Source: Candidatus Woesearchaeota archaeon (GTDB lineage: Archaea > Nanobdellota > Nanobdellia > Pacearchaeales > GW2011-AR1). Taken from it: a stretch of 64,000 bases of DNA. The notes below the pieces were generated by a model that was not told the DNA's origin, ran no database searches, and saw only the letters and a list, made by a program, of their open reading frames with translations. This document shows, in pieces, positions 17,842 to 56,615 of this stretch; the first letter of the stretch is position 1, and every line of letters begins with the position of its first letter. Both the position numbers and the translations under genes were made by a program. The DNA lies in contig CAYTHI010000001.1 in the NCBI GenBank assembly GCA_964437555.1, forward strand, positions 35,149-99,148. Reading direction: 5' to 3'.

Positions 17842-17991
17842 TTATCTTCTCTTGCGACGATGATGCTTGGATGCCTTCTTCTTCCTGCCGCCTCTGGCCA
17901 TTACTGCTTCACAAACATTGCCTTGCGAGTCAACGTAGTAAAGATATCCAGACTTCCTCTGCACAATATTCTTTGCAATTACTCTTCCCAT
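17842..17991 (-). CDS. small basic protein (49 aa), unannotated sub-threshold ORF
   Basis: MGRVIAKNIVQRKSGYLYYVDSQGNVCEAVMARGGRKKKASKHHRRKRR. It ends in a Lys/Arg tail and sits in an otherwise empty ~480-nt gap. Confidence 0.3.
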   Translation of the reverse strand: MGRVIAKNIVQRKSGYLYYVDSQGNVCEAVMARGGRKKKASKHHRRKRR

Positions 17992-18037: not shown

Positions 18038-18406
18038 TTAAACTTTTCCATGTTTCCCGACGAAAAACTCAATAATTCTGACATTTTTGTCATTAATGGG
18101 AACTTCCAAAAACTTTCGGTATTTTTTCCCGTGATTAACAGAAAAAGTAAATGGCCTCACAATTTTATAATCCAATACTTTGTTTTTTTCATCAAGCCAC
18201 ACGATTAAAAAATCAAAAAAGACAAACAAAGAAGTTATTTTTATATTCACATCCTTACTAAATTCAAAAATTAAATTCTCCGTCTTCCTGGATTTAAACA
18301 TGAGCCCAAAAATCCTTGATATAAAAGAAACTTTTTTAGCGTCAATTCTAATCTTCTTTCCGCGATAATTTATAGGAAATTTCATAATCTTTTGAAAATA
18401 AGACAA
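18038..18406 (-). CDS. DUF192-family protein
   Basis: 'GLMF' motif and ~120-aa size. Confidence 0.5.
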   Translation of the reverse strand: MSYFQKIMKFPINYRGKKIRIDAKKVSFISRIFGLMFKSRKTENLIFEFSKDVNIKITSLFVFFDFLIVWLDEKNKVLDYKIVRPFTFSVNHGKKYRKFLEVPINDKNVRIIEFFVGKHGKV

Positions 18407-18409
18407 AAA

Positions 18410-18733
18410 TTAAATGTCAGCCATTTCAGATTTTATCTTTGAGACTTTATTCATCTTGTCAGCAACCCTGTCAATCTTTGTCTGCAAATTCTTCTTTCTC
18501 TGATTCAGCTGAGCTTCTTTCTCAATCAGGGCTGCAATCTTATTCTGAAGTTCTTTTTCCTTTTCCCTGTCAACATCTATTGCAGAGCCTGTGCTTTGTA
18601 TCTGCGACTTCAATTCAGACTTTTCCCTGGAAAGCTTTCCAATCTCAAGCTCCAAATCCCTCATAGCTCCCGACAAGGGAGACTTAGCAGGTCTCATGGA
18701 AGAACTTTTTTTGGCACCGCGCCTCTTTTTCAT
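18410..18733 (-). CDS. coiled-coil hypothetical protein
   Basis: Heptad-rich Lys/Glu sequence. Confidence 0.4.
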   Translation of the reverse strand: MKKRRGAKKSSSMRPAKSPLSGAMRDLELEIGKLSREKSELKSQIQSTGSAIDVDREKEKELQNKIAALIEKEAQLNQRKKNLQTKIDRVADKMNKVSKIKSEMADI

Positions 18734-18755: not shown

Positions 18756-19799
18756 TTATAAACGTTTCTTTAACTTTTTTATAAGGGCATTTATATCCTT
18801 AAGGTCACTGCGATAAGTCTGGCTCTTAATATATCCTTTGTCAAAAGCTTCCTTTAGCAGGGATTTTTGGTATTCAAGCTTATTAATTCTCTTATTTATT
18901 CCCTGATAATCAACATCCTTTATATTGCCGATTTTCTTACGCCAGTTTTTAGAGCTGATAATAAGCCTCCTTTTCCAGTAATAATTTACTATAACAAAAG
19001 AAACCATTAAAACAAATAAGATAATAATTGCAAAAAGCGTTATAGAACTGCCATATAACTCGTAAAATGCTTTATCAGTTATAAGAAATTCAGAAGAGCT
19101 TGTTCCTATGAATCCTGTAGCTTTATCGCTGACAAGAGCATAAGCAATATACTCTCCCTTACCAGCATTGTTCGGAATAACAAAGCTTTTCTTTACTTCT
19201 GCCTGCGTTTTGACAAACAAGTCCTGCTCTTCACTGAACAAAATTTTGCCTTCAAAATCCTTGACTTCAAAAAGCAAATGAACATCACCTTCTCTAAGGT
19301 TTAAATTTAATATTTTAATTTTCACCTCAAACTCGTCTCCTGACGGCACTCTTGCAAACCTTGGGGCAATCTCTGTTATTGCATCAAAATAAACACTCTG
19401 GCTTTCAACTTCAAAGATTACAGGAAGGATATAAGATTTATCAGAAGAAGATACATTGATTTCGCCCGTATAAACTCCCTCTGTCAAGTTCTGGCTGCTT
19501 AGAACAACATCAAAAGTCTTTTCCTCTCCGCCTTCTAAAAAGATATCCCTAATTCCTTCATCAATAAAATTGCCTTCCGAATAATAGGTTATAAAAAAAA
19601 TATCATCTCCTCCTGTATTTAATAAAGTTACCGGAAAAGTTACAGATTCTCCTGAATGGATTGAGCTCTTTATGCTGAGACTGCTAAGCTCAAACTCGCT
19701 TGCTCCCACAAAAGATGAAAGCATAAATACCAGCATGACAAATAAAAAACTTTTTAATGACAATTTATCTTCCTCTCTTATATTTAGTATATTTTCCAA
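18756..19799 (-). CDS. surface protein with N-terminal signal peptide and C-terminal TM anchor plus cytoplasmic tail
   Basis: N-terminal hydrophobic signal peptide, then a beta-rich ectodomain with NxS/T sequons. C-terminal 'LFAIIILFVLMVSFVIVNYYWKRRL' TM and a 70-aa basic tail. Confidence 0.55.
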   Translation of the reverse strand: MENILNIREEDKLSLKSFLFVMLVFMLSSFVGASEFELSSLSIKSSIHSGESVTFPVTLLNTGGDDIFFITYYSEGNFIDEGIRDIFLEGGEEKTFDVVLSSQNLTEGVYTGEINVSSSDKSYILPVIFEVESQSVYFDAITEIAPRFARVPSGDEFEVKIKILNLNLREGDVHLLFEVKDFEGKILFSEEQDLFVKTQAEVKKSFVIPNNAGKGEYIAYALVSDKATGFIGTSSSEFLITDKAFYELYGSSITLFAIIILFVLMVSFVIVNYYWKRRLIISSKNWRKKIGNIKDVDYQGINKRINKLEYQKSLLKEAFDKGYIKSQTYRSDLKDINALIKKLKKRL

Positions 19800-21087
19800 G
19801 CCTTTTATATCTTAATATTGAAATAATTGCAACTATTATTGCAGCAACAGAAACTCCTATAAGAATATAGAGAGGGCTAATTTCAAACTTATCAGACACT
19901 TCAAATCTTGCGCTGGAAGTCGCAAAACCTCCTGGATATGAAAACTCCAGAGATAGCAGATATTCTCCGATGGGAAGAGCAGAAGTGTCAAATTCTCTTG
20001 TAAAGCTCTTGCTTCTGTCAACAAAGAAAGTCTCGCTTTCACTCAAAAGAGTGTTGCCATCAAAGTCCTTTACATAATAATTAGCAGTGGCATCAACTTC
20101 AGCATTATCGCCAACCTGAACAAGAGAGATAAATGCCTTTATTGTCTGGCCAGGATGAATAGTTCTGTATATCTGAGGAAGATTCAATGAAACATCAAAA
20201 AGAGAAGAACTGCTCTGAACATTCAGAATAATAAATACTTCTTTACTTATGCCTCCTGCATCAAATAACAATCTGCCCGCATAGACTCCATAAGAATCTG
20301 ATTTCATTATTAATAAGACTGATTTTCTTTCCCCTGGAGATATTGTTAAATGATTTGTATCAGCACTTACCAAATCATTAAAGCCAGATAATGAGACATT
20401 TATGTCAAGCTTTGAAGTTCCTGTATTCTCAAGCGTAACTTCTCTCGTAACAATCTCTCCTAAAGCAAGAATAACATTAATTTCACTCTCAGAAACCAAA
20501 AAGGCCCTTGCAGGTCTTAAAGGAGGATTATATCCTCCGCGCCCGCCTCCTCCGCCTGTTGCTCCTCCTGTTTGCCCTCCGCCGGAAGAGATAGTAACAG
20601 TAAAAGCCACGCTGTCAGAGCCCTCATTGCCTGACGTATCATTGGCATATACTCTCCATGTATTGCTTCCTTCAGAACTCGTTATGCTTGTAACATTATC
20701 GCCGCAGGTTACAGAAGTATTAGTCACTCCGCTGTTTAAGCTATACCAGCAGCTGCCTATTGCCTGATTATCGCTTGCTGTATAATTAAGCGCGGTTACA
20801 TGAGAAGTATAAGTAGTTGCGTCAGGATATGCTATGGAAACAGCAGGAGATTCACTATCGGCCCCTTCTACGGACAGAGAAAGCTCTGCCTGGTTGCTCG
20901 CATATGACTTCGGAAAAAAAGAAAATCCTCCATAAACTACCGCATATAATCCGATAGAATAAATAACAAGAATGAAATTCAAAAATAAGAGCAAGAATAA
21001 TAAAACATGCCTCTTTTTCATCTCTATTGGAATAAAACCTCTATTAAATATTTTCCTACTTCTCGAGATAAACTCCGACATCAACAA
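19765..21087 (-). CDS. surface glycoprotein-like protein, N-terminal signal anchor and C-terminal TM anchor; paralog of the previous gene
   Basis: Gly-rich linker 'GGGQTGGATGGGGGRGG'. Many N-x-S/T sequons. C-terminal 'LYILIGVSVAAIIVAIISILRYKRL'. Confidence 0.55.
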   Translation of the reverse strand: MLMSEFISRSRKIFNRGFIPIEMKKRHVLLFLLLFLNFILVIYSIGLYAVVYGGFSFFPKSYASNQAELSLSVEGADSESPAVSIAYPDATTYTSHVTALNYTASDNQAIGSCWYSLNSGVTNTSVTCGDNVTSITSSEGSNTWRVYANDTSGNEGSDSVAFTVTISSGGGQTGGATGGGGGRGGYNPPLRPARAFLVSESEINVILALGEIVTREVTLENTGTSKLDINVSLSGFNDLVSADTNHLTISPGERKSVLLIMKSDSYGVYAGRLLFDAGGISKEVFIILNVQSSSSLFDVSLNLPQIYRTIHPGQTIKAFISLVQVGDNAEVDATANYYVKDFDGNTLLSESETFFVDRSKSFTREFDTSALPIGEYLLSLEFSYPGGFATSSARFEVSDKFEISPLYILIGVSVAAIIVAIISILRYKRLGKYTKYKRGR

Positions 21088-21466
21088 TTCCTGAATAAAA
21101 TCCTAAACTTGTATTTTCATGAGTAATAACGCTAAAAGGAATAGAAATAGACTCTCCTACCGCAACAGAGTAGCTTTTCTGAAAGACTAATAAATCTGCT
21201 ATATTGCCATTTGCTTCAAGATAAATAATGACTGGAACAGAATATCCGTTTGCAAAAAGCAGGTTTCTTGTTGCGCTTCCCCCTATTGCTATTTTCCCAA
21301 AAGTTAAGGCAGTTGAATTCAAATCAAATCCGCCTGTATTTTCAGTGACCTCAACACTGGCAAAAACTTTCTTAACCTCAACGGGGCGATAAGAAATAAA
21401 AAGAGAAAGTGAGATAATAAAGAGGATTAAAGAAAACCCAAAAAGAAAATAAGCTGCTTTTTTCAT
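21056..21466 (-). CDS. small secreted or membrane protein
   Basis: N-terminal hydrophobic segment. Confidence 0.4.
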   Translation of the reverse strand: MKKAAYFLFGFSLILFIISLSLFISYRPVEVKKVFASVEVTENTGGFDLNSTALTFGKIAIGGSATRNLLFANGYSVPVIIYLEANGNIADLLVFQKSYSVAVGESISIPFSVITHENTSLGFYSGIVDVGVYLEK

Positions 21467-22569
21467 TTTTTAATATTCTTTATCTTTTTTCTTATTATAA
21501 AGATTATTGTAGCAGTCACTATTAATATTGCTGCAATGCTTCCGATAATTATTAATAACAGCATATTAGACTCAAGAATGGCAAGAGTACCGTAAGCAAA
21601 AGATTTTTGCCGTTCATAAGATAAAATAATGCTCGCATTATATCTGCCTTCAAGCTCATCTGTATCTAAAAATCCTTCAATCGTCTTTTTTTCCCAAGGA
21701 TTCAGTATAGCAGAGGGCGTTCTGAAAGTAATGTTTTGAACGCCATTTGTAAGATTAACATCTGCAAAAACTTCTGAAACTTGGCTGTTCCACCCGCTTT
21801 CAATATCTATTAGATATTTCTGAATGCCTTTCTTCTTCAATTCTTTCGTAAAATCAGTTATGTTAACAAATAAAGAGCCGATTCTAAAGCTTTGATTGAG
21901 ATAAAAAATCTCTCCGCCATAATTTACCACTGAACTTGCAAGATAATTATCCGGCTTAAATCCGGTAGTATTAAGATATTTCCTGAAATACCTTTCTTCA
22001 GACGTATTAAGAAAAGCAGATTGAAAATTCATTCTTTCAACTTCATTCATTCCACTATCAAAAAAAAGTATTATCGGGCTAACTTCTATTGACTCTTTTC
22101 CTCTGTTGATAACATGAAGCTCAACAGGTATAACTTCATTAATGTTGCCGTCGCCGACATTTAACTGCACATCAACATATTTTCCCGGATAAGGAACATA
22201 AACATTTACTATCGCCCGAATATTGACAGATGTCGCGATAAACTCGTTCTCTCCCGGAATTTCTCTAACCCCGACAATTAATGTATTTTTTCCTGCTTTC
22301 TCTACTTCTGCCGGCAGGTTAAGAGTTACTTCGAAAGAGCCTCCTCCCCGAAGTTCTCTCTTATTAAGAGTGGCGTATTGCGAAAGGTCGCCTTCAACAT
22401 AAGCTTCTAATTCGCTATCTGGCTCATCGACAATTGCCTCAAATTTAAAAGTATACTGATGATTCGGTTCAAAATTAACTTCAAATTTAGCAGGGCTAAT
22501 TCCTAAGGATGCAGCTGAAATTTTAATAAATAAAACCAAAAGAAAAAATAAAACCACTGCTTTTTTCAT
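21463..22569 (-). CDS. surface protein (signal peptide + C-terminal TM + basic tail)
   Basis: Signal peptide 'MKKAVVLFFLLVLFIKISAASLGISPAKFEV'. C-terminal 'LLLIIIGSIAAILIVTATIIFIIRKKIKNIKK'. Paralogous to 23962..25167 (shared 'VPYPGKY'). Confidence 0.55.
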   Translation of the reverse strand: MKKAVVLFFLLVLFIKISAASLGISPAKFEVNFEPNHQYTFKFEAIVDEPDSELEAYVEGDLSQYATLNKRELRGGGSFEVTLNLPAEVEKAGKNTLIVGVREIPGENEFIATSVNIRAIVNVYVPYPGKYVDVQLNVGDGNINEVIPVELHVINRGKESIEVSPIILFFDSGMNEVERMNFQSAFLNTSEERYFRKYLNTTGFKPDNYLASSVVNYGGEIFYLNQSFRIGSLFVNITDFTKELKKKGIQKYLIDIESGWNSQVSEVFADVNLTNGVQNITFRTPSAILNPWEKKTIEGFLDTDELEGRYNASIILSYERQKSFAYGTLAILESNMLLLIIIGSIAAILIVTATIIFIIRKKIKNIKK

Positions 22570-22754
22570 ATAACAAATTAAAGAAACAAGTTTTTATATC
22601 TTTTCAAAAAGCATCCTTAATATGGCTGCAGCAATAAATTGACTAATAAACTGTATAGCAGATTATATAAATATGATAAAAACAAGTGCAGCAAGCATAA
22701 ATTAATATGTTAAGAACATGCATAAAGAATTCTAAAGTAACATAGAAAGTAAAG

Positions 22755-23423
22755 CTAAAGAGCTGTCACCGTAGCAGTAACGACATCGCCTAACGCTCCT
22801 GTCTGGGAGTTTTCAGGAATAGTAAGATTAAAATCTAATCTTAATAAATCATTTCCTGACTCAAATCTGAACACAGAGCATCCTAAGCCTCCATTCTGCT
22901 GGTAGGCTGTTGTATTGGCCTGAAAGAAGCGATTAAGCCTCAAGCCTTCAGTTCCTCCTGCCACTCCGCTATTGTTTAAGCAAGAATTAGCTTCAACAGC
23001 TGTTAAATTCCACTCATAAACCGGATTGCTTCCGCCTATAAATTCAGACGCATTCTTCCCAACAGATAAATTCAGGCTAACATTAACATTTCCTATATTC
23101 TCCAATCTCAATCCTCCTGCAGTTGTTAATGTCCAGTTTCCGCCTGTAACATTGTCTGTCGCAAATGTAGTCAGGGCAGCAGCGCTTGAAGCAGGATTAA
23201 CTCTTCCCGAGCCCCAGCTTATTGCTCTTGTTGTAAAATTAACATTTGCAAGCGTTTCAACAGTAAGATTTGCCTCTCCTGTTGAAGTGGCAAAAGTCGT
23301 AACTCTACTGACAAGATTAGCAACAGAATAATAAGTAACTCCTGCAGCAATCAAAGAAACAACTACTGCAATCAATGCGAAAACTATTATAACAGAATCA
23401 AAGCTGCTTGATTTATCCGCCAT
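22755..23423 (-). CDS. N-glycosylation-sequon-dense membrane-anchored protein
   Basis: At least 10 N-x-S/T sequons in ~220 aa. N-terminal TM 'VIIVFALIAVVVSLIAAG'. Start set at an internal Met. Confidence 0.45.
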   Translation of the reverse strand: MADKSSSFDSVIIVFALIAVVVSLIAAGVTYYSVANLVSRVTTFATSTGEANLTVETLANVNFTTRAISWGSGRVNPASSAAALTTFATDNVTGGNWTLTTAGGLRLENIGNVNVSLNLSVGKNASEFIGGSNPVYEWNLTAVEANSCLNNSGVAGGTEGLRLNRFFQANTTAYQQNGGLGCSVFRFESGNDLLRLDFNLTIPENSQTGALGDVVTATVTAL

Positions 23424-23616
23424 TTGAACCCTCTTCTGCTTCGCTTGTCTCAACAACAAAATCAATAGTTCCACTGCCTGCCCCGACAACATTCCCTGAA
23501 GTCTTGCCATAAGGAACATTCAGATTCAAAACCTGAAAGCTTACAAATGCTGAAATTGCAGAGAACAGAATAGCAAGAATAAGTAAAGCCAAAACAATTT
23601 TTTGTGTTTTATCCAT
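23413..23616 (-). CDS. small TM protein
   Basis: 'MDKTQKIVLALLILAILFSAISAFVSF'. Confidence 0.35.
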   Translation of the reverse strand: MDKTQKIVLALLILAILFSAISAFVSFQVLNLNVPYGKTSGNVVGAGSGTIDFVVETSEAEEGSNGG

Positions 23617-23961
23617 TCGCTCCTTGTCCATGAATAAAAAGAGCCGAATATTTAAACCTTTCTTCAATAAAACATATTGTTTGATAAAAATAGTTTAATG
23701 GTGATTAGCCAATTTTAGCACTAAAAAGGATTAAATTGAAATTGTAAGCAAACAAATTAATCAGAAAGTTATCTTTTATCTCCGATAGAAATTAATATTA
23801 TCCACTAATTAACTTGAGAAGTATTTAAAGTTCGTATTTTCTATTGCAAGACAGATTTTCTACCTTATTTATGTCAAGAAACATTAAAAAGTTGGTGCAT
23901 TAACTGACTAATCACCAGTTTAATTATTACTGATAGAATAAAACCCTGATTTTATTGCCGG

Positions 23962-25167
23962 CTATTTCCCCTTAACCTTCTTCCTTAGATAAATAAACCA
24001 TAATAAGTTAACCATTATAAGCAGTACAATTACAGCTACAAGAACAATAATCAATGGCTGTGAGAACCTGCCTGAACTTCTGCTTCCTCCAGATGAAATT
24101 ACATAGCCGACACCAACAACATTTATATCATTATCCGAAACTTCAAGCTCTAATTCTCTTTGCTCGGAATTTGCTCCATATTTCAGGAATAATGAAGACT
24201 TGTAAGTGCCTTCCCTAACGCCTTCAGTATCCCAAAACGCAATCATCAGTATTTTACTAAGAGACGGAATATCATAAGTGGCTGACTTAAAATCAGCCAT
24301 CACGGCTCCTTCAGTATTGAACACCTGCATCTGCGCATAAGCTCCGGAAATCTGTTGGCTCCACTTATTCTCAACTAAAATTTCAAATTTGGCTATATCT
24401 CCCAAAGAGAAATCATTTACCTCTACCCCGACAACATCAAGTACCTGATTGCCCAAATTAAACTGCGTTTCAAGAGTAGCAGTAGATTCATCATAAATCA
24501 AAGTCGCGACAGCCCTGTAAGGTCCTGGCGGCGCATCTGATTTCCAAACAGCAACAACATCTCTTCTTTGGCCGCTTGGAATCTCAACTTCATTCGTATT
24601 AATTGTTTCAATCTTTTCATTCAGAGAACTGTATATGTCAATTACAGCCCCAACTCTTACTAAATCAAGCTCGCCTCTGCTTATCACAGGAATAACAAAA
24701 GTAACACTTCCGTCATCGTCAGGCCCGATTACATTAAGAGAAGCCTCGGCATATTTTCCCGGATAAGGAACGAATAAATGTATTTGAGTTGCAACTCCTA
24801 AAGCAGCCCCTATAAAGGCCTGGCTTGTTTCTGCCTTCTTAGGCAGTTGTAATACAACAACTTCCGAAGTATGCAATCCGGGAGACAATCCATTAGGAAT
24901 ATCAACAATATACCTTAATTTCTTTTCTTTGTCTGCGGCTTTCATCGAAAAAGAAACTTCTGAAAGAGAAATGCTTCTGTTTAATTCTCCCTGAACAAAA
25001 ACAACAATATCCATATCCTGATTTTCTGAATTAACCACTGTAAACTCAACTTCTGTCTTTTGTCCGGGTTTGTAATCCAGAACCGTCCTGCCGGGAGTAA
25101 TTCCCAATGCTAAAGCGCCAGAAGACAATAAAACCAGAAGCAAAAGTATAGCCAATAATTTATCCAT
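23962..25167 (-). CDS. surface protein paralog (signal peptide + C-terminal TM anchor)
   Basis: Signal peptide 'MDKLLAILLLLVLLSSGALALGITPG'. C-terminal 'LIIVLVAVIVLLIMVNLLWFIYLRKKVKGK'. Confidence 0.55.
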   Translation of the reverse strand: MDKLLAILLLLVLLSSGALALGITPGRTVLDYKPGQKTEVEFTVVNSENQDMDIVVFVQGELNRSISLSEVSFSMKAADKEKKLRYIVDIPNGLSPGLHTSEVVVLQLPKKAETSQAFIGAALGVATQIHLFVPYPGKYAEASLNVIGPDDDGSVTFVIPVISRGELDLVRVGAVIDIYSSLNEKIETINTNEVEIPSGQRRDVVAVWKSDAPPGPYRAVATLIYDESTATLETQFNLGNQVLDVVGVEVNDFSLGDIAKFEILVENKWSQQISGAYAQMQVFNTEGAVMADFKSATYDIPSLSKILMIAFWDTEGVREGTYKSSLFLKYGANSEQRELELEVSDNDINVVGVGYVISSGGSRSSGRFSQPLIIVLVAVIVLLIMVNLLWFIYLRKKVKGK

Positions 25168-25657
25168 TTTCTCCCCCTATAAATTTAGTTCCTGCAACTT
25201 CCTTGCTTTCATCAACATCAAGAACAATGCTTCCTGTAAGATTTTCATTCTGATAAATATCAACATTAAGCAAGGTGTTTCCTGCATTAACAAGGTCATA
25301 CCTGCTGCCTTCACTTTTCTTCAGCTTCAATGCAACCTCTGAAATGATAGTAAGCTTTCTCACACTGCTTGGCAAAGCTCCCTGAACCTTCCAGTAATAA
25401 GTGCCTGGCTTCAGATTCACTATCAAATTATCTTCAACAAAAATCTCCTGCGGAGAACTAAACTCAAGATTATCATCTATCAGTATTTCATTCGCCTTTT
25501 CAAAACTAAATAGAACCGAATTGTTTGAAGTTGCATAGTCATCAAGAGGAGAGATAACTAATGGGCTTGCATATCCAAACACAAAAACAATCCAGATTAA
25601 TGTTCCGACTATCAAAAGAAAGTCAATTGCCAAGATGTATTTCTTCTCAAATTTCAT
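25160..25657 (-). CDS. N-terminally TM-anchored protein
   Basis: Coupled to neighbours (1-nt gap to the giant gene, 8-nt overlap downstream). Confidence 0.45.
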   Translation of the reverse strand: MKFEKKYILAIDFLLIVGTLIWIVFVFGYASPLVISPLDDYATSNNSVLFSFEKANEILIDDNLEFSSPQEIFVEDNLIVNLKPGTYYWKVQGALPSSVRKLTIISEVALKLKKSEGSRYDLVNAGNTLLNVDIYQNENLTGSIVLDVDESKEVAGTKFIGGENG

Positions 25658-25658
25658 T

Positions 25659-28600: not shown

Positions 28601-31600
28601 TGTTAATCACAACTAAATCCTCGCTTGCCGCATCTATCGCTGTAATCAAAATTGTTGTTCCTCTTATGCTTAAATGCATATTTGAAACAGCTAATCCATA
28701 AGCTATTGTGGTCTGATTTGCTGTAAACGAACCAGAAGAATTAATTACAAGCAAGCTACTTGTGGCAGCATCATCTAAGGCAATATAAACATTTCCATTG
28801 CTGCTCATATCTAAAGAACAGCTTTCAGCAATTCCAGGTCCGCCTGCCGATGCTCGTGTAGTCCATGCCAGAGTAGCACCAAGATTAGTAAACGAAAAAT
28901 CCATGTCAAAATCATCATTATCCATGCTGCAGGCAAGAAACCTGCCGCTTGTTGTAGTGCCGTCAAAAGCAACATCCGGGCGATAATTGTCGTTAGTTCC
29001 TCCGGAAACATCAATGATAGCTCCTGAATTAGCAACATTGCAGTCAGCAGTCACATTGTAAATATAACTTATATCATTCTGACCTCCCGTATCATCAGTA
29101 AACATATAGATAATAGCAGAGCCATTAGTGGCAATAGCCATATCGCTATGAGTTCCAGTTAAAGAATCATAAGTATTCCAATTAACACCTTCATCTGAAG
29201 AATCTGAACAGGAGGCATCACTGCTTGCATCCTGCCACAATGCAATAAGTAAATCGGAATTTAACCTGACTATGTTTTTTCCTGCATTAAATCCGCCAGT
29301 AGTAGTTCCTGTTGCTGTTGTTGATGCGTCCGCATTAATCAGATAGTTAGTTGAAGGGTCAATAATATGGTCAAACTCCACACTGCCTCCTAAAATCCTT
29401 AAGTCAAAACTATCCTGCTCTCCTTCCAATCCTGTAAGAAATACTTTATTATATTCATTATCATTAATGCTTTCAAATTCTGCAATAGTCTTATTTTCAT
29501 TTATTTCATAGACTTCAATCCTCGGACTTCCGTTCACAGCTCTTGGATAAATGCTTATGTCCCTGTCGCTTGTCAAATTCCTCTCAAATTTAACTCTCAC
29601 ATAATGCTCTGCAGGAATAGTTTCACTCCAATTTCCGTCCAGTTTAGAAACTTCAGGATAAATGTCAGAGATAAATGTCCTGTTTGAATCAAGATGCTCT
29701 GCAGAAACAATTTCTATAATTAAATCAAACGTCTGATTGCTCAACTCCGGAATAATCCATTCAGCGTAATCATATATTCCATCTTCATCTAAATCAGAAA
29801 CATTTACAGGAACAACATACGCTTGTTTTTCTTCCCAGTATATTTTTAAATCATCTTTATCAATAAGATTATATGATTCATCTAAATTCGTGAAGGACAA
29901 AACATTCTCATAATGAATTTCATCAGGCCCTATAATCAAAACTTTCTTGCCTATTCGTCCATCAGTTAAATTTTCCTCTATCGCATAAGGAGCAGGAGTA
30001 TAATAACTCACTTTGGCTCCTTTCTCAAACTCGCTTAGCTCAATTAATATTTCTTTTCCTTCTTTTGCTTCTGCTTCTTCAGAAACTGCAAATCCGGTCA
30101 ATCTTAAAATATTTCTAAACCATTTTAAAATTCTGTTTTCCCTGTTCAAACTAAGGTCTGCTGTAACCGCTCCAGTGATTATGCTTCCTGTAATATCAGC
30201 ATTAATGGATTCTGGCTCATTATTAGCGGGCTCTGACACCTCAACATTCTCTTCAACATCGGCAACTTCATCTGTTCCTTCATTATCAAATTCCTTCTCT
30301 ATCTTGTCAATAGAAATATTTTCAGCGATTTCAGGGATAAAAATGCTGAAACTGGCAGGTCCATCAACATTATCAACTTTCTTAACCCATTTAACAGGCT
30401 CGTTAAGCTTTATTTCATCATGAACAAGCTCAACATTTATGGATAAATTAGGCTCAATTGTTTTATTAGGAGAAATTATGCTTTCATTAGAAGTTTTATT
30501 AATGCCAATTTCAGGAACAATTTCCTCATTTTTTTCATCAGATTTATTCAGATTTCCTGAAACTGATATGCCTTGAAATACTTCAACAATTGTTTGTCCT
30601 TCATAAGAAAGCTTAGCAGATAAAACGCCTTCATCAGCCCTAAAATTAAAATCTTCCAAATCAATAATTAAAGTAAGCTTATTATTTCCTAAATATTCTT
30701 TGCCGAATCCTTTTTCCTCTAAATAATAATCAGTTGAAACAATGACTTCATTTCTATTTATATCAACTTTGACATTTTCATCTCCAATTGCCTCTCCATT
30801 CGCAGTTACGCTTCCTGAAATTAATCTTGCACTCTGTCCTTCACTTAGCTCATGCACAAAATCTTGCCCATTAACCGCAGTTCCTGTAATTCCAGATGAA
30901 AATTCAGATATCGCTGCTCCTGTAATTCCCGGAGCAGGGCTTCCACCACCAGATTCACTTCCTCCTCCTGAACTTTCAGAATTACTATCAGAAGTTTCCT
31001 GCTTATTTTCTTCTGAATTTTCTTTAGATTCTGCAGGGGTTTCTTTCTTATCAGCATTCAAATCATCCTGCATCTGGGGCTCATCAATTTTAGAAGAGCC
31101 GCTTCCTGAAGAGCCAGAACCAAATTCTTTTACTATCTCCAATTCAAAACTCACAGAAGGATAAATTTCTCTTATGCCACTTATACCATACCCTTCGCCG
31201 CTTCCTGATAAATCCAAACCTTCCGCATAAAAATCTCCATTAACAGCCTGTTCTGTGATTAAATCTTTCAAAGCAATTTCTCTTTCAATACTATTAAGAC
31301 CAATAAGTACAACAGAATCAACAGGAATAAGTTCCCCCGCTTTCAAATTTAAAATCAAATTGCCTTCTATCTGCTCTCCAAGAACATATCGTGTCTTAAT
31401 ATCAAGCGTTGCATTCCCTGTTAAATTCGCTGAGATGAAAAAGAAAAGTAAGAGAACTCCTAAAACAAAAAAGAAAGCTGCAGGAAAAAGATATTTCTTT
31501 AAATTATTTCTGGATTTTGCATGCCCTAAGTATCTTGTAATTATCTTTCCATCAACTCTTTCTGTTTCATAAAGATATGGGCCAAATCTCTTCCCATTTT

Positions 31601-31625
31601 TATAAGTATATTTTTTATGTACCAC
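25659..31625 (-). CDS. giant (1988-aa) cell-surface protein with N-terminal signal anchor, Gly/Ser linkers, tandem beta-sandwich and beta-helix-like domains, and dense N-glycosylation sequons
   Basis: Basic cytoplasmic N-terminus then TM 'LFPAAFFFVLGVLLLFFFI'. 'GSGSSGSGSS...SGGGSESGGGS' linkers. '...TPTFVWTAGSDDDGDSLFYEL' Ig-like motif. A run of NxT/NxS sequons (e.g. 'NLTNLSLNTELRNNFVFANSTIFSHLNKTANITFYN'). Confidence 0.6.
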   Translation of the reverse strand: MVHKKYTYKNGKRFGPYLYETERVDGKIITRYLGHAKSRNNLKKYLFPAAFFFVLGVLLLFFFISANLTGNATLDIKTRYVLGEQIEGNLILNLKAGELIPVDSVVLIGLNSIEREIALKDLITEQAVNGDFYAEGLDLSGSGEGYGISGIREIYPSVSFELEIVKEFGSGSSGSGSSKIDEPQMQDDLNADKKETPAESKENSEENKQETSDSNSESSGGGSESGGGSPAPGITGAAISEFSSGITGTAVNGQDFVHELSEGQSARLISGSVTANGEAIGDENVKVDINRNEVIVSTDYYLEEKGFGKEYLGNNKLTLIIDLEDFNFRADEGVLSAKLSYEGQTIVEVFQGISVSGNLNKSDEKNEEIVPEIGINKTSNESIISPNKTIEPNLSINVELVHDEIKLNEPVKWVKKVDNVDGPASFSIFIPEIAENISIDKIEKEFDNEGTDEVADVEENVEVSEPANNEPESINADITGSIITGAVTADLSLNRENRILKWFRNILRLTGFAVSEEAEAKEGKEILIELSEFEKGAKVSYYTPAPYAIEENLTDGRIGKKVLIIGPDEIHYENVLSFTNLDESYNLIDKDDLKIYWEEKQAYVVPVNVSDLDEDGIYDYAEWIIPELSNQTFDLIIEIVSAEHLDSNRTFISDIYPEVSKLDGNWSETIPAEHYVRVKFERNLTSDRDISIYPRAVNGSPRIEVYEINENKTIAEFESINDNEYNKVFLTGLEGEQDSFDLRILGGSVEFDHIIDPSTNYLINADASTTATGTTTGGFNAGKNIVRLNSDLLIALWQDASSDASCSDSSDEGVNWNTYDSLTGTHSDMAIATNGSAIIYMFTDDTGGQNDISYIYNVTADCNVANSGAIIDVSGGTNDNYRPDVAFDGTTTSGRFLACSMDNDDFDMDFSFTNLGATLAWTTRASAGGPGIAESCSLDMSSNGNVYIALDDAATSSLLVINSSGSFTANQTTIAYGLAVSNMHLSIRGTTILITAIDAASEDLVVINSSDGIVYSNATYAGTFNDSEGCLDANNNAHIVFENNTAIDYIKYTSTGFFTAQEQISDNTGALRFPSVRCSNYPSNNQLGSSELELVYTDQATDVYFANITIDTSAADKTSPQVMLINPSNNTITTTGIAAFGALFTDDVNVSNATLFVYNSTNDLVAQNFTGLGNSSIVGNITHNIGLNGSGAYYWNFLAMDNAIPHNQAFNTSNFTLTYSPADAAPPNITVYFPKGANYTFSDLPFTFNVSLDENGSVSYSMNNGVDNISMNGNEGKFGTAFTHSNNSLLTGTYVFRVYANDTLGNNNFTVNVTFGLNVSLVSACTTLHETGKTYFLNNTLSTTASCLVVNASNIALEGEGFTIEHTGPVIGTVHGIELRDPAENLTVKNTFIPDFTNSIGVTYTGNNGNGGKNITIRDSEVEGLLNNGEICDATCIASAGSGGPGGAFYLYNTNVTKQISAAMGAGDGSATSEGGLAYIEDTRLINLTNIAVNLSAFPTFKHGRLIINYSGQFADLNSSYGNNITITLINGTTSGGEIKFISGTSALNLTNLSLNTELRNNFVFANSTIFSHLNKTANITFYNMPGNFRYPKVYRDNAICNDCYNFTSLNAGTVIFNISGFSNYSIQDSNNAPAAPTPEINSTLGTNRTNENLNCFDTLIDPEGDRINVTVMWINNSLSHLVVDFNNSYANNSFFNATLLSGNTTKNHNWTCSMRLYDGLEYSNWVNSSNLTIINTPPGTPTLSSPADGSSTTDRTPTFVWTAGSDDDGDSLFYELNLTCRNILGGGCSGYGEDNRHISFPLGLTSHKLSGDLLYLYDNNYQYNWSIRAYDEQDYSAWTDFFRVNISSLIQMSLPNSSINFGQISQFGTNDTSDNSPLPFLIQNDGNSFVNVTIGATDLWRSQANPSTNYQFKIDNYTLENGSFNWVLSKFTYTNITLTASPILAIARLNYTNATDTAEIDINVTVPLQEAAGARNSTVTFTGSLGE

Positions 31626-31734
31626 TATCCCTCTTTTGTAAGAGAACTGCTTTCAGCAGTTCAAATATACTAAAATACTGGTATTTATAAGTATTTCTTT
31701 ATTTTTCCTAAAAATAAATATAAGTTCTCTTACA

Positions 31735-33678
31735 TTATAATCCAACTTGAAATATCCAATTTGCGTCTTCACTGAATCCGCAGGGGTCTATTATTCCTGC
31801 GCTTTCATTATGGATTGTCGTTGCATTGCACGCTCCAAAATAAGACAAGGAGGAAAAGCAGTCTGGGTCTGAATCATCTGTAAACCCATCATAATCATTA
31901 TCCAACCCATCCCTGCATTGAAACAAGCTGGGAGTGGGAATATGTTGGGTTATATCAATATATTTATTATTCCCGAGTGATTTGAAATAAAAAATATTAT
32001 CTTCTTTTCTAACTGTGCTGAAGTTTTTAGATATAAAATTAATTTCTGTAAAATTCCCTATTGGAATCTGTAAAAGCCTCCCGCCCCGCCCTATAAGCCC
32101 GACTTGTCTGAAATTTGGCTGCAAACTTAGGGGAGGAAACCAGTGGCTTAATGTGATTGAATCAAATCCCGCATGCTGTGCAATTGCAATCCCTGATTTT
32201 ATTGAATATCCATAATAATCCTGGCTGAAATTATAAAATGCAGGCGAATATTCTGTTGAGCTTAATCCTTTTCCTGTTATTCCATTATCTCTCCATATTG
32301 CCCTTACAAGATTTGCTATATATTTTCCCTGCTGCGGAAATCCATGATACGTGTGAATATCAAGGTAATCATAATATGCCGAGCCATTAACAGCAACAGC
32401 TTTTAGAAATTCGTAAGTTACTCTTCCTTCCCGGTCTCCTAGAGTTACAATCTTGATTCCGGGGCGGCCATCGCTTGACCTATAATAAAATCCATCAATA
32501 ATATAACTGTCCTCATTAAATCCCGCATAAAGCGCGGCATTATCAACACCTGTTACTCCGAAAGTTAAAACAGGAAGCGATGGAGCAACTTCTTTTACAG
32601 CAAGATAAGAAATATTCATCAAACTTAATATCTGTACCTCTTTATCTGTTCCAAGCGGGCCATAATCGTAGCTGGCATTAACTTCAAATTGATGGCCCCA
32701 CTCATTGCCTATTTGCACCCCAACAAAATAATCTCTGTATACCGGATTGTTGTAATACCTGTCCGTTATGTTTTTTATATAATCTGTCCATTGCTGCTCG
32801 CTTTTCGGATAAGAGTCCGGCTCCTGAAGCCCTATCCCTCCCAAAGTAAATGAGACTGTTGAAAGGTCAGGATGATTTGACCTTACCGTGAGAAGAAATT
32901 TCATATTTGCATTCTTAAAGTTATTGGCTGCCGCATCTAATCCGGTGAAATTGTAGGTTAATGCTGTGCCATTTTGAACATTATACCAGTCTAATATAGA
33001 GCGATGATATTGCACTCCTGTTTGGTTTGTCTGGCTTAACGTAGCTGAAGATGAGCCTACCGAATGAAGTCCCAATACGGGCAGCGGAGTTATGCTTGGA
33101 TTTAGCAAGCCATTTCTTATTCTCGTGCATGTATCTAAATCAAAGTCAGATAGATTAATGATTTTATAGCTGCCGCATGCTCCAACCGGAGGGATATTGC
33201 CGCTGGAAGCCTGTTGCGTGCAAATTGCTTCAAGCCCTGAAAAATCACACAATCCCGAAGATAAAACTCCTGCAACATCAACTGACTCAACTGAAGCACC
33301 CCCTAAATCTAAATCCAAATTAAAATCATAAACTTCAAAGCCAAACTCGCCGGGAAAATTATTTGTTTCTGACAGGATTATGTTTCCGTTAGAAGTCTTA
33401 AATAAAAATTTAATTTCTCTTAGCTGCCCCTGACCTGCTCCTCTGCGAACACCGACTTCAATTCTGTTTCCATCAATAATCAAGTCACAATTCTCAGCTT
33501 TCAAATCCAAATCAAAACAGCTTAGCAGTCTGCCCTGCTCTCCGCTTCCTCCTTCTCCTGTTCCTAAAATCTTAGTTACCGGAGGCTGAACAAAAATCCA
33601 AACAATTGCAATAGCAACAAGTGCAATCAATATCACAAGAACAGTTGTAACAATGCTACTAATTCCTCTTTTTCGCAT
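31735..33678 (-). CDS. secreted protein with archaeal prepilin-like (class III-type) N-terminus and a conserved Cys-containing N-module; C-terminal region carries a glycoside-hydrolase-like 'GNEW' motif (tentative)
   Basis: 'MRKRG|ISSIVTTVLVILIALVAIAIVWIFVQP'. The N-module is homologous to that of 39146..41413. 'VGVQIGNEWGHQF' resembles a GH-A acid/base motif. Confidence 0.5.
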   Translation of the reverse strand: MRKRGISSIVTTVLVILIALVAIAIVWIFVQPPVTKILGTGEGGSGEQGRLLSCFDLDLKAENCDLIIDGNRIEVGVRRGAGQGQLREIKFLFKTSNGNIILSETNNFPGEFGFEVYDFNLDLDLGGASVESVDVAGVLSSGLCDFSGLEAICTQQASSGNIPPVGACGSYKIINLSDFDLDTCTRIRNGLLNPSITPLPVLGLHSVGSSSATLSQTNQTGVQYHRSILDWYNVQNGTALTYNFTGLDAAANNFKNANMKFLLTVRSNHPDLSTVSFTLGGIGLQEPDSYPKSEQQWTDYIKNITDRYYNNPVYRDYFVGVQIGNEWGHQFEVNASYDYGPLGTDKEVQILSLMNISYLAVKEVAPSLPVLTFGVTGVDNAALYAGFNEDSYIIDGFYYRSSDGRPGIKIVTLGDREGRVTYEFLKAVAVNGSAYYDYLDIHTYHGFPQQGKYIANLVRAIWRDNGITGKGLSSTEYSPAFYNFSQDYYGYSIKSGIAIAQHAGFDSITLSHWFPPLSLQPNFRQVGLIGRGGRLLQIPIGNFTEINFISKNFSTVRKEDNIFYFKSLGNNKYIDITQHIPTPSLFQCRDGLDNDYDGFTDDSDPDCFSSLSYFGACNATTIHNESAGIIDPCGFSEDANWIFQVGL

Positions 33679-33872
33679 GCCTAATATTAAACAGGCGCTT
33701 ATTTAAAATTAATCAAAGAAGGTTATTATTTTGATACTGAAAAAATTAAGTGGATTTTAATGAACTGCTTAAGATATAAATATGTGCTTTAATATGTCAG
33801 GATTTATTTTTTGCGTAAACTCCCAACTTTAGTTCGTGATGAAGCAAAAATCAAAACACGTTCTTAACAAAC

Positions 33873-35444
33873 TTACTGCGGTCTGTTCCTCGCCGGATTA
33901 GGAACATTGCATTCCTGATTATAATCCGACTGTGCAGAAACCGGAGAATTTAAGTTATTCGGCTGTGTTATAACTTTTGCAGTATTCTCTATATGAACAG
34001 AAGTCTGCCCCCATTCTATCTTCCTTGCGGCAACATCGTTTATAAAACCGATTAATGTATAAGAGCTCTGTCCGTTGTTCGGGCTAATCATCTCCGTAGT
34101 TTCTGCCGGACCTTTAAATCCATGAACTCTCTTTAAATCTCCTGTTCCTTTTTTGATAAAAAGCCAATCTGTCCAAACAAAAGTATCCTGCTCTTTGTTC
34201 CCATATTGGGCATATCTGTGTATTGTCTGGCAGAGAGCAAGTAATTTAGCTGGAAATTCAGGGGCATTCTGGTCTCCTAAACCCGAAACAGCAATTAAAT
34301 CTTCCTTATTAATTACTGGCAGGATTCTTAAATCCAGGTTTCCGAATCTTGAATGATAGTGTTCTGTTAAATCTAAAACATCAAGGCATTCATCTCCTCC
34401 GGAATAAGTAGCTCCGTTCTGTTCGCAGGGCTGTAAGACATTATAATTATCAAGTCGATTCTGCAAATCTGCCTTTTTTTGAGCATTTGTTACTATATCA
34501 TTCCCGTCCCATACTCTCGCTGTTGGAGAACCAGCCTGAGGAATTATAGTGAATTTTGCATTTGGCTTATTATAAATTAAATCTCCTATTCTCCACGCAT
34601 TATACCATACTCCGAATCCTCCTGCTGAACTGCCTGTCATTAGTATCTCTGCATTATTTAAGTTAAAGCCCGTTGGCTGTAATCTTTCAAAGACTTTATC
34701 TAATCCTAATTCAACATTTTTTGCTCCGTCATGCAATATATTAAAATAGACTTTCTCAACTTCAAACCTGCCATTAATGTTAGTGCCTTGAATTTCTAAT
34801 CCTTTTATTTGCGATTGTATTTCCTGTATTGTATTCCCCCTATTGTTGAGCAACGTCTCAATCTCCTGCACTATTTTCGTAACTTCTGAAAAATCATATC
34901 TCTTGGCTGATGTTTCTCTCCCTGAATGGAAATCCTGCGTGCAATAAGGTATAGTAACCCAGTTGGCATCTTTGACGAATAATTCATTGTCTGGATGGTC
35001 AATAAAAATAAATTGCTCAATTTCTAATGGCCCGCCTCTTTTTGGAGATGTTAATGCCCGCATTTCTTTCAGACTCCCTATGGCTGTATTCAGAGTTCCG
35101 TCTATATTTTTAGAAGTTGAGCCCCCGCCAGGAAACCAGATTACCAGACGATTGTTTGGCTTATTATTTAAAGAAGGTCCTTGCGAGAATAAGATTTGAT
35201 ATGGCTCTCCATTGCCGCATTTTGCGCCGTCAACTATTATTGTTTCCCATTCGCTTCTGTCTGTGAAGATAGGGAAGTTCGGGATTTCTTCCTCCTCTTC
35301 TTCTCCTCCCCCGGAGCCTCCTCCGCCTCCTTTTCCCCCTTTCTTAAAAATACCAAGCCGCGGAGCCAGCACAGCAAGTAAAAGCACGACTATTATAAGA
35401 GCAGCAATGATAATAATTATGGTTTTTTGCTGGCTTTTTTCCAT
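33873..35444 (-). CDS. membrane-anchored alpha/beta-hydrolase-fold esterase (GxSAGG nucleophile elbow)
   Basis: N-terminal TM then 'KKGGKGGGGGSGGGEEEEEE' linker. 'ILMTGSSAGGFGVW' and 'VIWFPGGGS' are esterase/pectin-acetylesterase-like motifs. Confidence 0.5.
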   Translation of the reverse strand: MEKSQQKTIIIIIAALIIVVLLLAVLAPRLGIFKKGGKGGGGGSGGGEEEEEEIPNFPIFTDRSEWETIIVDGAKCGNGEPYQILFSQGPSLNNKPNNRLVIWFPGGGSTSKNIDGTLNTAIGSLKEMRALTSPKRGGPLEIEQFIFIDHPDNELFVKDANWVTIPYCTQDFHSGRETSAKRYDFSEVTKIVQEIETLLNNRGNTIQEIQSQIKGLEIQGTNINGRFEVEKVYFNILHDGAKNVELGLDKVFERLQPTGFNLNNAEILMTGSSAGGFGVWYNAWRIGDLIYNKPNAKFTIIPQAGSPTARVWDGNDIVTNAQKKADLQNRLDNYNVLQPCEQNGATYSGGDECLDVLDLTEHYHSRFGNLDLRILPVINKEDLIAVSGLGDQNAPEFPAKLLALCQTIHRYAQYGNKEQDTFVWTDWLFIKKGTGDLKRVHGFKGPAETTEMISPNNGQSSYTLIGFINDVAARKIEWGQTSVHIENTAKVITQPNNLNSPVSAQSDYNQECNVPNPARNRPQ

Positions 35445-56028: not shown

Positions 56029-56615
56029 TGGCAAGACTAACTGAGGAAAAAAATAAGTTAAGATGGATTTTGATTAGAGAATTTACCAAGCATCTTATCA
56101 TAAATTCCAAAAAAGAAGAATTTATAAGAAAACCTATAATAGTTAGAAAAGAACAGCCTAAAAAAAAGCAATACGAAATAAAGCAGAATTTAATGATGGC
56201 TTCCCCAAGAACAAGGTTCAATGAAAACGTATTTCAGAATCTGGCTAAACAGGATGATTATCCAAAAAACATTAAGCCTGCAATAGGAGCTGTTAATCTT
56301 GGCAAACTTAATCTCCTGATATCCGATCCAAGAGTAAAAGAAATTGATTGCTACGGCCCAAATAGGGAGATGCTGGTTAAAATAGGAAATTCAACGCAGA
56401 AAACAAAAATCTCCTTAAGTCAGGAGGAAATAACCAGCATCATAAAAGACTTCTCAGAAAAGACACGCATTCCGTTAATGAAGGGCGTGTTTAAAGCCGC
56501 TCTGGGAAACATTATAATTACCGCATTTATCTCAGACTTTGTAGAAACCAAATTTACAATACAAAAAAGGACCCCGTTTGAGCCTCTCCTGCCTTCAGGA
56601 AAGGCTAATTCATAA
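56028..56615 (+). CDS. FlaI/VirB11/GspE-family secretion ATPase N-terminal domain only (ATPase domain absent; truncated gene)
   Basis: 'ISDPRVKEIDCYGPNREMLVKIGN...ALGNIIITAFISDFVETKFTIQKR' matches the pre-Walker-A 'dp.vtEI..ng...v...G...a.L.dGsR......TIRK' segment. The ORF ends 15 codons later, with no P-loop. Confidence 0.5.
   Translation: MARLTEEKNKLRWILIREFTKHLIINSKKEEFIRKPIIVRKEQPKKKQYEIKQNLMMASPRTRFNENVFQNLAKQDDYPKNIKPAIGAVNLGKLNLLISDPRVKEIDCYGPNREMLVKIGNSTQKTKISLSQEEITSIIKDFSEKTRIPLMKGVFKAALGNIIITAFISDFVETKFTIQKRTPFEPLLPSGKANS

Follow-up and report, generated by a model that had tools for sequence, protein, structure and literature searches.

In the WxL clusters of Gram-positive bacteria, the WxL domain is a beta-sandwich found in a short as well as a long protein, and in each of them it is completed by a strand that the WxLIP protein contributes (PMC10599100). 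Donor-strand exchange also builds fibres in archaea, and the membrane anchoring of two kinds of these, threads and bundling pili, is still an open question (PMC9715654). Here we describe a cluster of genes for exported proteins on the minus strand of a 64-kb stretch of DNA (hereafter, the window) from contig CAYTHI010000001.1 of a Candidatus Woesearchaeota archaeon. The logic of this operon resembles that of the WxL/WxLIP clusters and of the donor-strand-exchange fibres, and the operon belongs to none of these families. Literature searches on the cluster, on donor strands in DPANN archaea and on WxL proteins in archaea turned up no earlier description of it. The operon most likely tethers a giant, sugar-coated and highly variable adhesin to the cell. 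A surface assembly held together by beta-strand complementation and displaying this giant, variable, glycan-coated adhesin is our tentative reading of the locus, with a probability of roughly 0.45.

Between positions 18756 and 35444, the minus strand of the window carries ten open reading frames (ORFs) of 136 to 1988 amino acids (aa) and one 84-aa ORF (23413-23667), which we named, in the order of transcription, g10, g9, g8 (the giant), g7, g6, g5b, g5, g4, g3, g2 and g1. An earlier, sequence-only reading of the window had treated them as a single 17-kb unit of 11 genes; the same-strand cluster is real, but its boundaries have to be redrawn, because the conserved operon consists of nine genes (g8-g7-g6-g5b-g5-g4-g3-g2-g1; 18756-31625), and g9 and g10 are two variable hydrolase genes outside it. 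Within the window, a gap of 1 nucleotide (nt) separates g8 from g7, and overlaps join g7 to g6 (8 nt), g5b to g5 (11 nt) and g4 to g3 (4 nt). Longer overlaps between g3 and g2 (32 nt) and between g2 and g1 (35 nt) hold only if the most upstream TTG is the start; a start at 21021 (MKKRH) leaves instead a 34-nt gap between g3 and g2, in agreement with the median of +41 nt in orthologous loci. Of the close spacing noted earlier, the 1-nt gap and the short overlaps are real; the 32-nt and 35-nt overlaps hinge on the choice of start.

All 11 cluster proteins have an N-terminal hydrophobic segment, compared with 8 of the 47 other ORFs of the window, and four of them (g1, g2, g4 and g6) end in a transmembrane helix followed by a basic tail; the N-terminal signals or anchors and the C-terminal anchors that had been suspected from the sequence are thus borne out. 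Every product is exported or membrane-anchored, and no match to domains of intracellular enzymes was detected. Scans of the cluster proteins against Pfam and NCBIfam yielded almost nothing above cut-off, with the exceptions of g9 (TIGR02537) and g10 (PF03283), and sequence and profile searches of the PDB with g8, g6, g5 and four family alignments (A1-A4) found no significant relative. No gene for an ATPase, enzyme, sortase or peptidase was recognized by family scans in the conserved core, whose genes also include none for a polytopic membrane protein, and a sortase gene was not seen in the rest of the window either.

The most conserved protein of the cluster, g6, has 464 homologues, the best 120 of which are 51-72% identical to it; the named ones belong to Pace-, Woese-, Nano- or Parvarchaeota. 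When each species was represented by one genome, relatives of g6 were detected in 151 genomes, and 80 loci were fetched and their gene content determined by ORF calling and jackhmmer. The block g8-g7-g6 is present in all 72 informative loci, that is, those with enough upstream sequence, and is followed by g5, g4 and g2 in 38 of the 50 loci whose downstream sequence extends for 4.5 kb or more. The genes always stand in the order g8-g7-g6-(g5b-g5)-g4-g3-g2. Inside the sub-modules, the genes are closely packed, with median distances of +1 nt for g8 to g7, -8 nt for g7 to g6, and -4 nt each for g5b to g5, g4 to g3 and g2 to g1, whereas the sub-module boundaries are wider, with gaps of 79, 39 and 41 nt. 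Identity amounts to 41-65% for g6 across the fetched loci and to 49-87% for g5 among the listed homologues, which is unusually high for surface proteins. The comparative genomics that had been called for thus shows a gene order kept across loci and defines the nine-gene unit.

Downstream of g3, the loci take one of two forms. The window and 11 other loci have a g2 of ~350 aa and a g1 of ~335 aa, and then two small genes, d1 and d2, and Kae1; in 28 others, g2 is 660-700 aa long with a cysteine-rich C-terminal module and is followed by a sequon-rich protein of 1250-1350 aa that ends like g1. Further examples of loci with variation are L012, L033 and L064, alongside L013, L054 and L077. The cluster often lies near Kae1 and ribosomal-protein genes in related loci. 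The gene content of the window itself is archaeal (Kae1, YchF, gyrase with an intein in GyrB, HisRS, PheRS), and the closest relatives are genomes of Pacearchaeota, Woesearchaeota and Nanoarchaeota, which agrees with the DPANN-like organism that the earlier reading had considered. Because the products are exported or anchored, no intracellular enzyme family is matched and the relatives are DPANN genomes, the general reading of the cluster as an apparatus of the cell surface or of adhesion in such an organism stands.

A chance neighbourhood of unrelated secreted proteins without joint function could be imagined, given that small DPANN genomes are rich in hypothetical surface proteins and that most of the proteins here lack a family assignment. 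However, one and the same gene order is seen across 72 loci (20-65% identity), the sub-modules have overlapping start and stop codons, and internal paralogy ties together g5, g5b and g8, then g6, g4 and g3, and finally g2 and g1. Synteny effectively refutes this explanation.

The first of these ties connects the giant protein with a short one. By the evidence of sequence profiles, g5 (22755-23423, minus strand; 222 aa from the start MADK, with the ORF extending to 23519) and the final ~145 aa of g8 are homologues: residues 51-220 of the g5 family match the family of g8 C-termini with an hhalign probability of 98.3% (E=1.6e-14, 138 columns), and independent alignments of the two (A2 and A3) yield 95.1% (E=3.4e-8, 150 columns). 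The corresponding g5-like domain of g8 occupies aa ~1843-1985 (25671-26099, minus strand). In g5, a signal or anchor helix is followed by a conserved strand, GEANLTVE, and a beta-sandwich of ~165 aa with two invariant cysteines. None of the 196 g5 homologues contains a Pfam domain; a g5 profile search gave 1520 clusters at 50% identity, of which the best 150 were listed. The model of g5 obtained with AlphaFold2 (predicted local distance difference test score, pLDDT, 85.8) has a helix at residues 7-42, an unstructured segment at 43-60 and a beta-sandwich at 61-221. Residues 43-60 are among the most conserved of the protein, with a nearly invariant NLTV, yet have low confidence and no structure in the monomer. 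The papers on the cannulae and on TLP-1 describe AlphaFold2 monomers in which the donor strand, located at the N-terminus, is likewise left disordered. Among the top 50 structures found with Foldseek, 19 are donor-strand-exchange subunits (CanX, CanA, TLP-1a, FimG/F, CsuA/B, PapE, CfaE), and the best by probability is the cannula protein CanX (9h8b; probability 0.98, TM-score 0.51, E=0.015). These matches are weak (E 0.01-0.2, none at or below 0.001).

Directly upstream of g5 lies g5b (23413-23667, minus strand; 84-aa ORF, with a probable start at 23616 that leaves 67 aa), which consists of a hydrophobic helix, a linker, a strand of the conserved form G.V.L.VE and a short acidic tail. It matches the first ~60 aa of g5, comprising helix, linker and strand (hhalign probability 95%, E=3e-8), and nothing beyond, so that, as far as profile similarity can tell, g5b is a mini-copy of the g5 N-terminus, an anchor plus one strand. 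In all 57 gene pairs, g5b precedes g5 within 10 nt (median -4), and in L013, L054 and L077 the pair is tandemly duplicated as a unit, giving up to four copies of g5.

The giant g8 (25659-31625, minus strand; 1988 aa) consists of an N-terminal cytoplasmic motif, a single transmembrane helix (aa 46-64), an ectodomain that is hypervariable and rich in sequons, and a C-terminus that is again conserved. Its orthologues are 1600-3170 aa long and, apart from the N-terminal motif, alignable only over the last 360-470 aa; conservation is limited to the two ends. The N-terminal motif, VHKKYTYK[ND]GK[RK][FY]GPYYYETKRV.GK.VTTYLG, precedes the transmembrane helix in 18 of 22 full-length g8 orthologues (31524-31622 in the window) and had no match in NCBIfam. 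We take it to resemble the KxYKxGKxW signal-peptide motif of giant Gram-positive adhesins. Pfam scans of g8, both whole and in eight segments, gave no match and thus supported neither the beta-helix-like segment that had been read from the sequence nor any other domain. The Ig-like (immunoglobulin-like) repeats that had been described in g8 could not be upheld either: the motif on which they were based, PTFVWTAGSDDDGD, is not a repeat, because it occurs only once. An Asp-box motif is found in g8, and some of its orthologues carry lectin-like Laminin_G_3 domains. A donor strand was also sought at the N-terminus of g8, where LTGNATLDIK, following the transmembrane helix, looks by eye like TGEANLTVE of g5; as hhalign assigns this likeness a probability of only 1-13%, such a strand is unsupported.

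Several side observations concern the giant. A 404-aa protein without a Pfam match (56605-57819, minus strand) is a paralogue of g8 residues 50-387 (23% identity, E=2e-5), that is, of the transmembrane helix, the domain that follows it and a Gly/Ser-rich linker. Nearly the entire spacer between g9 and g8 is flanked by a 12-bp inverted repeat, TGTAAGAGAACT / AGTTCTCTTACA (31637-31648 and 31723-31734), just upstream of the GTG start of g8. Finally, the 1066-aa protein P0300 has two Laminin_G_3 domains and, at its C-terminus, a match to the g5 profile with E=1.4e-46, so that domains of the g5 type are also found at the end of other lectin-like proteins that are shorter.

The second group of paralogues comprises the proposed partners of these proteins. 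The g6 protein (23962-25167, minus strand; 401 aa) starts with a cleavable signal peptide, continues with three Ig-like domains in tandem and ends in a transmembrane helix and a basic tail. The structure prediction that had been recommended as a check gave a g6 model (pLDDT 87.9) with three beta-sandwich domains of the Ig-like type and a terminal helix. In Foldseek, g6 matches Ig arrays of the ASH/hydin type, the WxLIP structures 9i25_C and 9i1y (E about 1e-8 to 1e-7) and, with E about 1e-6 and TM-scores of 0.41-0.45, the chaperones FimC, DraB and YadV. By sequence, the sole chaperone-usher match of g6 is FimC (E=0.83), and neither g6 nor its 55 scanned homologues match a PapD-family domain of Pfam. 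Residues 109-123 of g6 form a conserved loop at the end of domain 1 that has low confidence in the model. PapD carries its donor strand at the position that matches the end of domain 1.

The proteins g4 (21463-22569, minus strand; 368 aa, with a signal peptide, three Ig-like domains and a C-terminal transmembrane helix) and g6 are paralogues over the full length (BLASTP E=1e-21, hhalign 100%, common VPYPGKY linker), and g4 orthologues were found in 59 loci. The pair g6/g4 had already been recognized in the sequence-only reading, as had g2/g1, and both hold in BLASTP and hhalign comparisons. The small g3 (21056-21466, minus strand; 136 aa) has an N-terminal anchor and a single Ig-like domain that corresponds to domain 1 of g6 (residues 22-105; hhalign probability 93%, E=3e-7), with weak matches to ASH and choice-of-anchor-D families; 98% of the g4-g3 pairs lie within 10 nt. 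Always located between g8 and g6, g7 (25160-25657, minus strand; 165 aa) consists of an N-terminal anchor and a small beta-rich domain with a PG.YYWK motif. It has no relative in Pfam or the PDB and shows a weak similarity to the fn3-like domain and first strands of the g8 C-terminus (probability 52%, E=1.4e-4).

The operon might be a true evolutionary counterpart of the Gram-positive WxL/Csc clusters, with g6 and g4 as orthologues of WxLIP; g5 and g8 would then be the short and the long WxL protein, much diverged in sequence, and would bind a polymer of the cell wall. The domain PF11797 (WxLIP_HBD) is found in 26 of 55 g6 homologues at E<=0.01 and PF06030 (DUF916) in one, WxLIP crystal structures are among the fold matches of g6, and the cluster logic is the same, with short and long proteins that have a common C-terminal domain and an Ig protein with a C-terminal transmembrane helix (PMC10599100, PMC9772566). 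The PF11797 scores, however, are only 26-34 bits against a cut-off of 28.9; in a rescan of eight g6 homologues, two exceeded the cut-off, and g6 of the window itself had no match. Moreover, g6 has three domains rather than the two of the DUF916 and DUF3324 (PF06030 and PF11797) partner, although the C-terminal transmembrane helix is in place, and its first domain is not recognized as DUF916. Membership of g5 and g8 in the WxL family was considered because g5 contains the triplets NWTL and WNL, and was rejected: PF13731 (WxL) had no match in 48 members of the g5 family (E<=1) or in 16 g8 C-termini (E<=0.1), and the triplets of g5 (W97 and W138) are not conserved in the g8 domain, where the W97-T-L segment is opposite a gap and W138 is matched by Phe. 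In addition, the binding that characterizes WxL clusters is non-covalent and directed at peptidoglycan, which, to our knowledge, archaea of these lineages are not expected to have. Taken together, we regard such a direct counterpart as improbable.

The distribution of N-x-S/T sequons divides the cluster in a different way. Across the window, the background amounts to 0.57 sequons per 100 aa, just what composition alone predicts. Against this background, g8 contains 88 sequons (4.4 per 100 aa, 2.4 times the composition expectation), concentrated in the C-terminal half, and g5 contains 5.0 per 100 aa, also 2.4 times the expectation, with the sequons at N52 and N62 present in at least 80% of 63 sequences. 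Enrichment is moderate in g9 and g4 (2.0 and 1.9 per 100 aa), g1, g2, g3, g6 and g7 are near the background, and g10 and g5b have no sequons at all. The uniform glycoprotein character that had been attributed to the cluster, with dense sequons on every protein, is therefore incorrect; rather, a glycan-rich set (g5 and g8) is set off from a sequon-poor set (g6 and g7), and the same split is seen across the orthologue families, with medians of 4.4 per 100 aa for g5 and 6.0 for the g8 C-terminus versus 0.45 for g6 and 0.61 for g7. This split fits an arrangement in which g5 and g8 are exposed and glycan-coated, and g6 and g7 are buried or membrane-proximal.

Heavy sequon enrichment of g5 and g8, like that of archaeal surface-layer (S-layer) glycoproteins, is also what the main rival of our reading would predict. 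Here, g8 and/or g5 would form the glycosylated outer canopy of an S-layer or envelope lattice, and the anchored Ig proteins g6, g4, g2 and g1 its membrane stalks, in a two-tier arrangement like that of SlaA and SlaB in Sulfolobales. All products are envelope proteins, four of them are stalk-like, with a transmembrane helix and a basic tail, and the cluster is conserved like a housekeeping trait, often near Kae1 or ribosomal-protein genes. In addition, both g1 and g2 weakly match NF033506, an NCBIfam family of putative S-layer proteins (E=3.6e-5). This match, the best to any curated S-layer family, reaches 22.6 bits, far below the cut-off of 110, and no S-layer protein is among the sequence or fold matches from the PDB. 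Furthermore, most of g8 is hypervariable, in sequence as well as in length (an unusual property for a lattice former), and S-layers are not known to have a subunit of ~18 kDa, a mini-gene for a strand only or tandem copies of the (g5b, g5) pair. An S-layer thus appears an unlikely, if serious, explanation.

The proteins with the S-layer-like match form the third group of paralogues. In the window, g2 (19765-21087, minus strand; 440 aa, with a probable start at 21021) has a signal peptide followed by an N-terminal domain that varies, a linker rich in Gly, two domains that form an ASH/CARDB-like pair, a C-terminal transmembrane helix and a basic tail; it weakly matches the Cep192_D3 and HYDIN Ig families, and its orthologues are 340-700 aa long. 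Its paralogue g1 (18756-19799, minus strand; 347 aa) has a signal peptide, two Ig-like domains, a transmembrane helix at aa 253-271 and a helical cytoplasmic tail of ~75 aa. The C-terminal halves are common to both (BLASTP E=4e-10, hhalign 99.6%).

In the strand-complementation reading, these proteins would be parts of one machine that runs without an energy source of its own. We propose it because the short and the giant protein end alike, the partners are anchored tandem-Ig proteins, one mini-gene encodes a strand only and no energy source is encoded. The earlier reading had recognized neither the kept gene order nor the g5-type end of g8, the strand-only g5b or the PapD-like or WxLIP-like character of g6 and g4. 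The g5 protein and the last ~145 aa of g8 would be the same kind of beta-sandwich body; the GEANLTVE strand of g5, right after the signal peptide, would be free in the monomer, as in the model, and g5b would provide the anchor-plus-strand piece alone, possibly as a cap or anchor. Together, g6 and g4, each with three Ig domains and a C-terminal transmembrane helix, and the single-domain g3 would form a membrane-fixed platform that is PapD-like or WxLIP-like, with g2 and g1 as further membrane-anchored Ig proteins whose outer ends vary. Assembly would start with Sec export and signal-peptide cleavage, followed by N-glycosylation of g5 and g8; the membrane-anchored Ig proteins would then capture the g5-type bodies, and an N-terminal strand of g5 or g5b, or a strand of the platform, would be inserted into the g5-type body of the next protein. 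As a result, g8 would be joined to the membrane via one or many g5 units, making either a short tether or a fibre, and would presumably act in adhesion.

Several points weigh against this proposal. The gene order, homology relations, membrane topology and predicted folds are direct results of the analysis, whereas strand insertion is suggested by analogy. The g5 and g8 C-terminal profiles revealed no sequence link to the TasA, AbpA, CanA, thread or WxL families, either against PDB sequences, which include solved donor-strand fibres (for example, 9h8b and 7uii), or in member-wise Pfam scans. The Foldseek statistics of g5 are weak (E>=0.013), its model was computed with the hydrophobic helix attached, which could have distorted the linker, and the borderline WxLIP_HBD scores of g6 relatives could reflect generic Ig-fold similarity. 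The g8 segment that aligns with the candidate donor strand of g5 lies inside the chain, directly after an fn3-like domain, and so may be nothing more than the strand with which the sheet of the g5-like domain itself begins. Finally, the N-terminal helices of g5, g5b, g7 and g8 may be either cleaved or retained.

A bolder version of strand complementation, which we consider doubtful, is a chaperone-assisted donor-strand-exchange appendage in Archaea, in which g6 and g4 would hold subunits of the g5 type, g5b would be the cap and membrane anchor and g8 would be the hypervariable adhesin of a host-attachment organelle of Pace- and Woesearchaeal DPANN. If true, it would be a missing link that joins the chaperone-usher pili of bacteria and the WxL complexes of Gram-positive species to the archaeal fibres built without chaperones. 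Strand complementation with anchored PapD-like proteins would in itself show how a strand-exchange assembly can be anchored without an outer membrane. Few uncultured archaea are as widespread as Pacearchaeota and Woesearchaeota, and the operon, made up wholly of proteins that currently lack annotation, is a concrete conserved candidate for the apparatus with which they contact hosts or surfaces. Specificity for a host or substrate would then be marked by the parts that vary, namely, the central region of g8 and the outer ends of both g2 and g1, and the conserved g5, g6 and g7 are targets for antibodies, metaproteomics and cryo-electron tomography.

The two genes upstream of the operon, g9 and g10 (31735-35444, minus strand; 647 and 523 aa), encode surface-anchored hydrolases that are variable neighbours outside the core. 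The g9 protein (31735-33678) has a signal peptide of the type IV pilin (archaellin) type (TIGR02537, 26.2 bits, cut-off 20) and an undefined middle region, and g10 (33873-35444) is pectinacetylesterase-like (PF03283, 32.9 bits, cut-off 26.6) with an N-terminal anchor. The lack of sequons in g10 compares with 4.5 expected on the basis of composition, whereas neighbouring surface proteins are enriched. The first 160 aa of g9, comprising the class III pilin-type signal peptide and the domain next to it, are 40% identical (E=6e-34) to the N-terminus of a 755-aa protein (39146-41413, minus strand) that carries a PhoPQ-related hydrolase domain; thus, it appears that a pilin-like N-terminal module has been joined to C-terminal regions of two kinds, of which one resembles a hydrolase. 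A cytoplasmic HExxH protein of the PhageMetallopep family (PF18894; 35649-36074, minus strand) is separated from g8 by g9 and g10 in the window, lies directly upstream of g8 in L004, L008, L020, L023, L038, L042, L048, L051 and L070, and is located elsewhere in L046.

With hydrolase-like, surface-anchored g9 and g10 directly upstream, the giant and the Ig proteins could be thought to bind polymers in a complex for substrate capture or degradation rather than for adhesion, working with g9, g10 and the 39146-41413 protein. Csc clusters were at one time proposed to function in the use of carbohydrates. In L002 and L006, too, g8 is preceded by a homologue of g9, and the Laminin_G_3 domains of some g8 orthologues and the Asp-box motif of g8 agree with such a function. 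Nevertheless, g9 and g10 are missing from most related loci, and the conserved core contains no enzyme or transporter, which makes this role rather improbable.

On the other side of the operon, d1 and d2 (18038-18733, minus strand), located downstream of g1 in the 12 loci of the window type, are a 107-aa coiled coil without a signal peptide and a 122-aa protein with a weak DUF192 match; it is uncertain whether they belong to the system. Between d2 and Kae1, we noticed a basic 49-aa ORF (MGRVIAKNIVQRKSGYLYYVDSQGNV...; 17842-17991, minus strand) that is absent from the ORF list; small genes are called at this position in L002 and L004, and its stretch GYLYYVD..GNV resembles the N-terminal motif of g8 by eye. 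Farther away, the intein in the GyrB gene (8248-10593, minus strand; PF14890, Intein_splicing) lies between the GyrB and Toprim domains.

Among the known surface systems, some can be set aside. A type IV pilus reading of the core was rejected because the only class III signal peptide is that of the non-conserved g9 and no pilus machinery is found in the window; no gene for an assembly ATPase or platform protein of a type IV pilus or archaellum was detected in the 64-kb window or in the Pfam-annotated related loci. The nanotubes reported in DPANN originate from the host (PMC11329633) and are, for that reason, not relevant to the operon. Chaperone-usher pili have more in common with it, namely, tandem Ig proteins with a PapD-like fold (g6 matches FimC, DraB and YadV), subunit-like folds (g5 matches FimG/F, CsuA/B and PapE), an adhesin with a subunit-type C-terminal domain, and the loop that closes domain 1 of g6, which is conserved and poorly ordered. 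In contrast, the operon comes with neither an usher nor an outer membrane, no large beta-barrel protein that could be an outer-membrane usher is present in the cluster or the related loci, where all conserved genes are accounted for, and its chaperone-like proteins are membrane-anchored and consist of three domains each.

The donor-strand fibres (TasA, AbpA bundling pili, Sulfolobus threads and Pyrodictium cannulae) come closer. Like g5, for which glycosylation is predicted, their subunits are small, secreted, glycosylated beta-sandwich proteins with a conserved N-terminal strand that is unstructured in the AlphaFold2 monomer, and CanX is the best fold match of g5; the loci likewise lack an ATPase, and accessory subunit-like genes adjoin that for the major subunit. 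Unlike the operon, in which membrane-anchored PapD-like proteins are always present, the known fibres are described as chaperone-free; further differences are the giant protein that ends in a subunit domain, the strand-only mini-gene and the absence of an adjacent signal peptidase gene here. The WxL/WxLIP (Csc) clusters of Lactobacillales and Listeria differ from the operon in that there is one two-domain WxLIP instead of two three-domain partners (g6 and g4), that g5b, g7, g3, g2 and g1 are extra genes here, and that the archaeal proteins have a heavy potential for N-glycosylation and a long protein two to three times larger, with a conserved N-terminal motif. Shared by both is the combination of a short and a long protein with a common C-terminal beta-sandwich (here g5 and g8), the location of the variable binding domains of the long protein N-terminal to the common domain, and a partner with a signal peptide, Ig-like domains and a C-terminal transmembrane helix, for which g6 resembles the WxLIP structures. 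Thus, the closest parallel in gene content is the WxL/WxLIP cluster, and the closest parallel to g5 is provided by the donor-strand fibres of archaea and monoderm bacteria.

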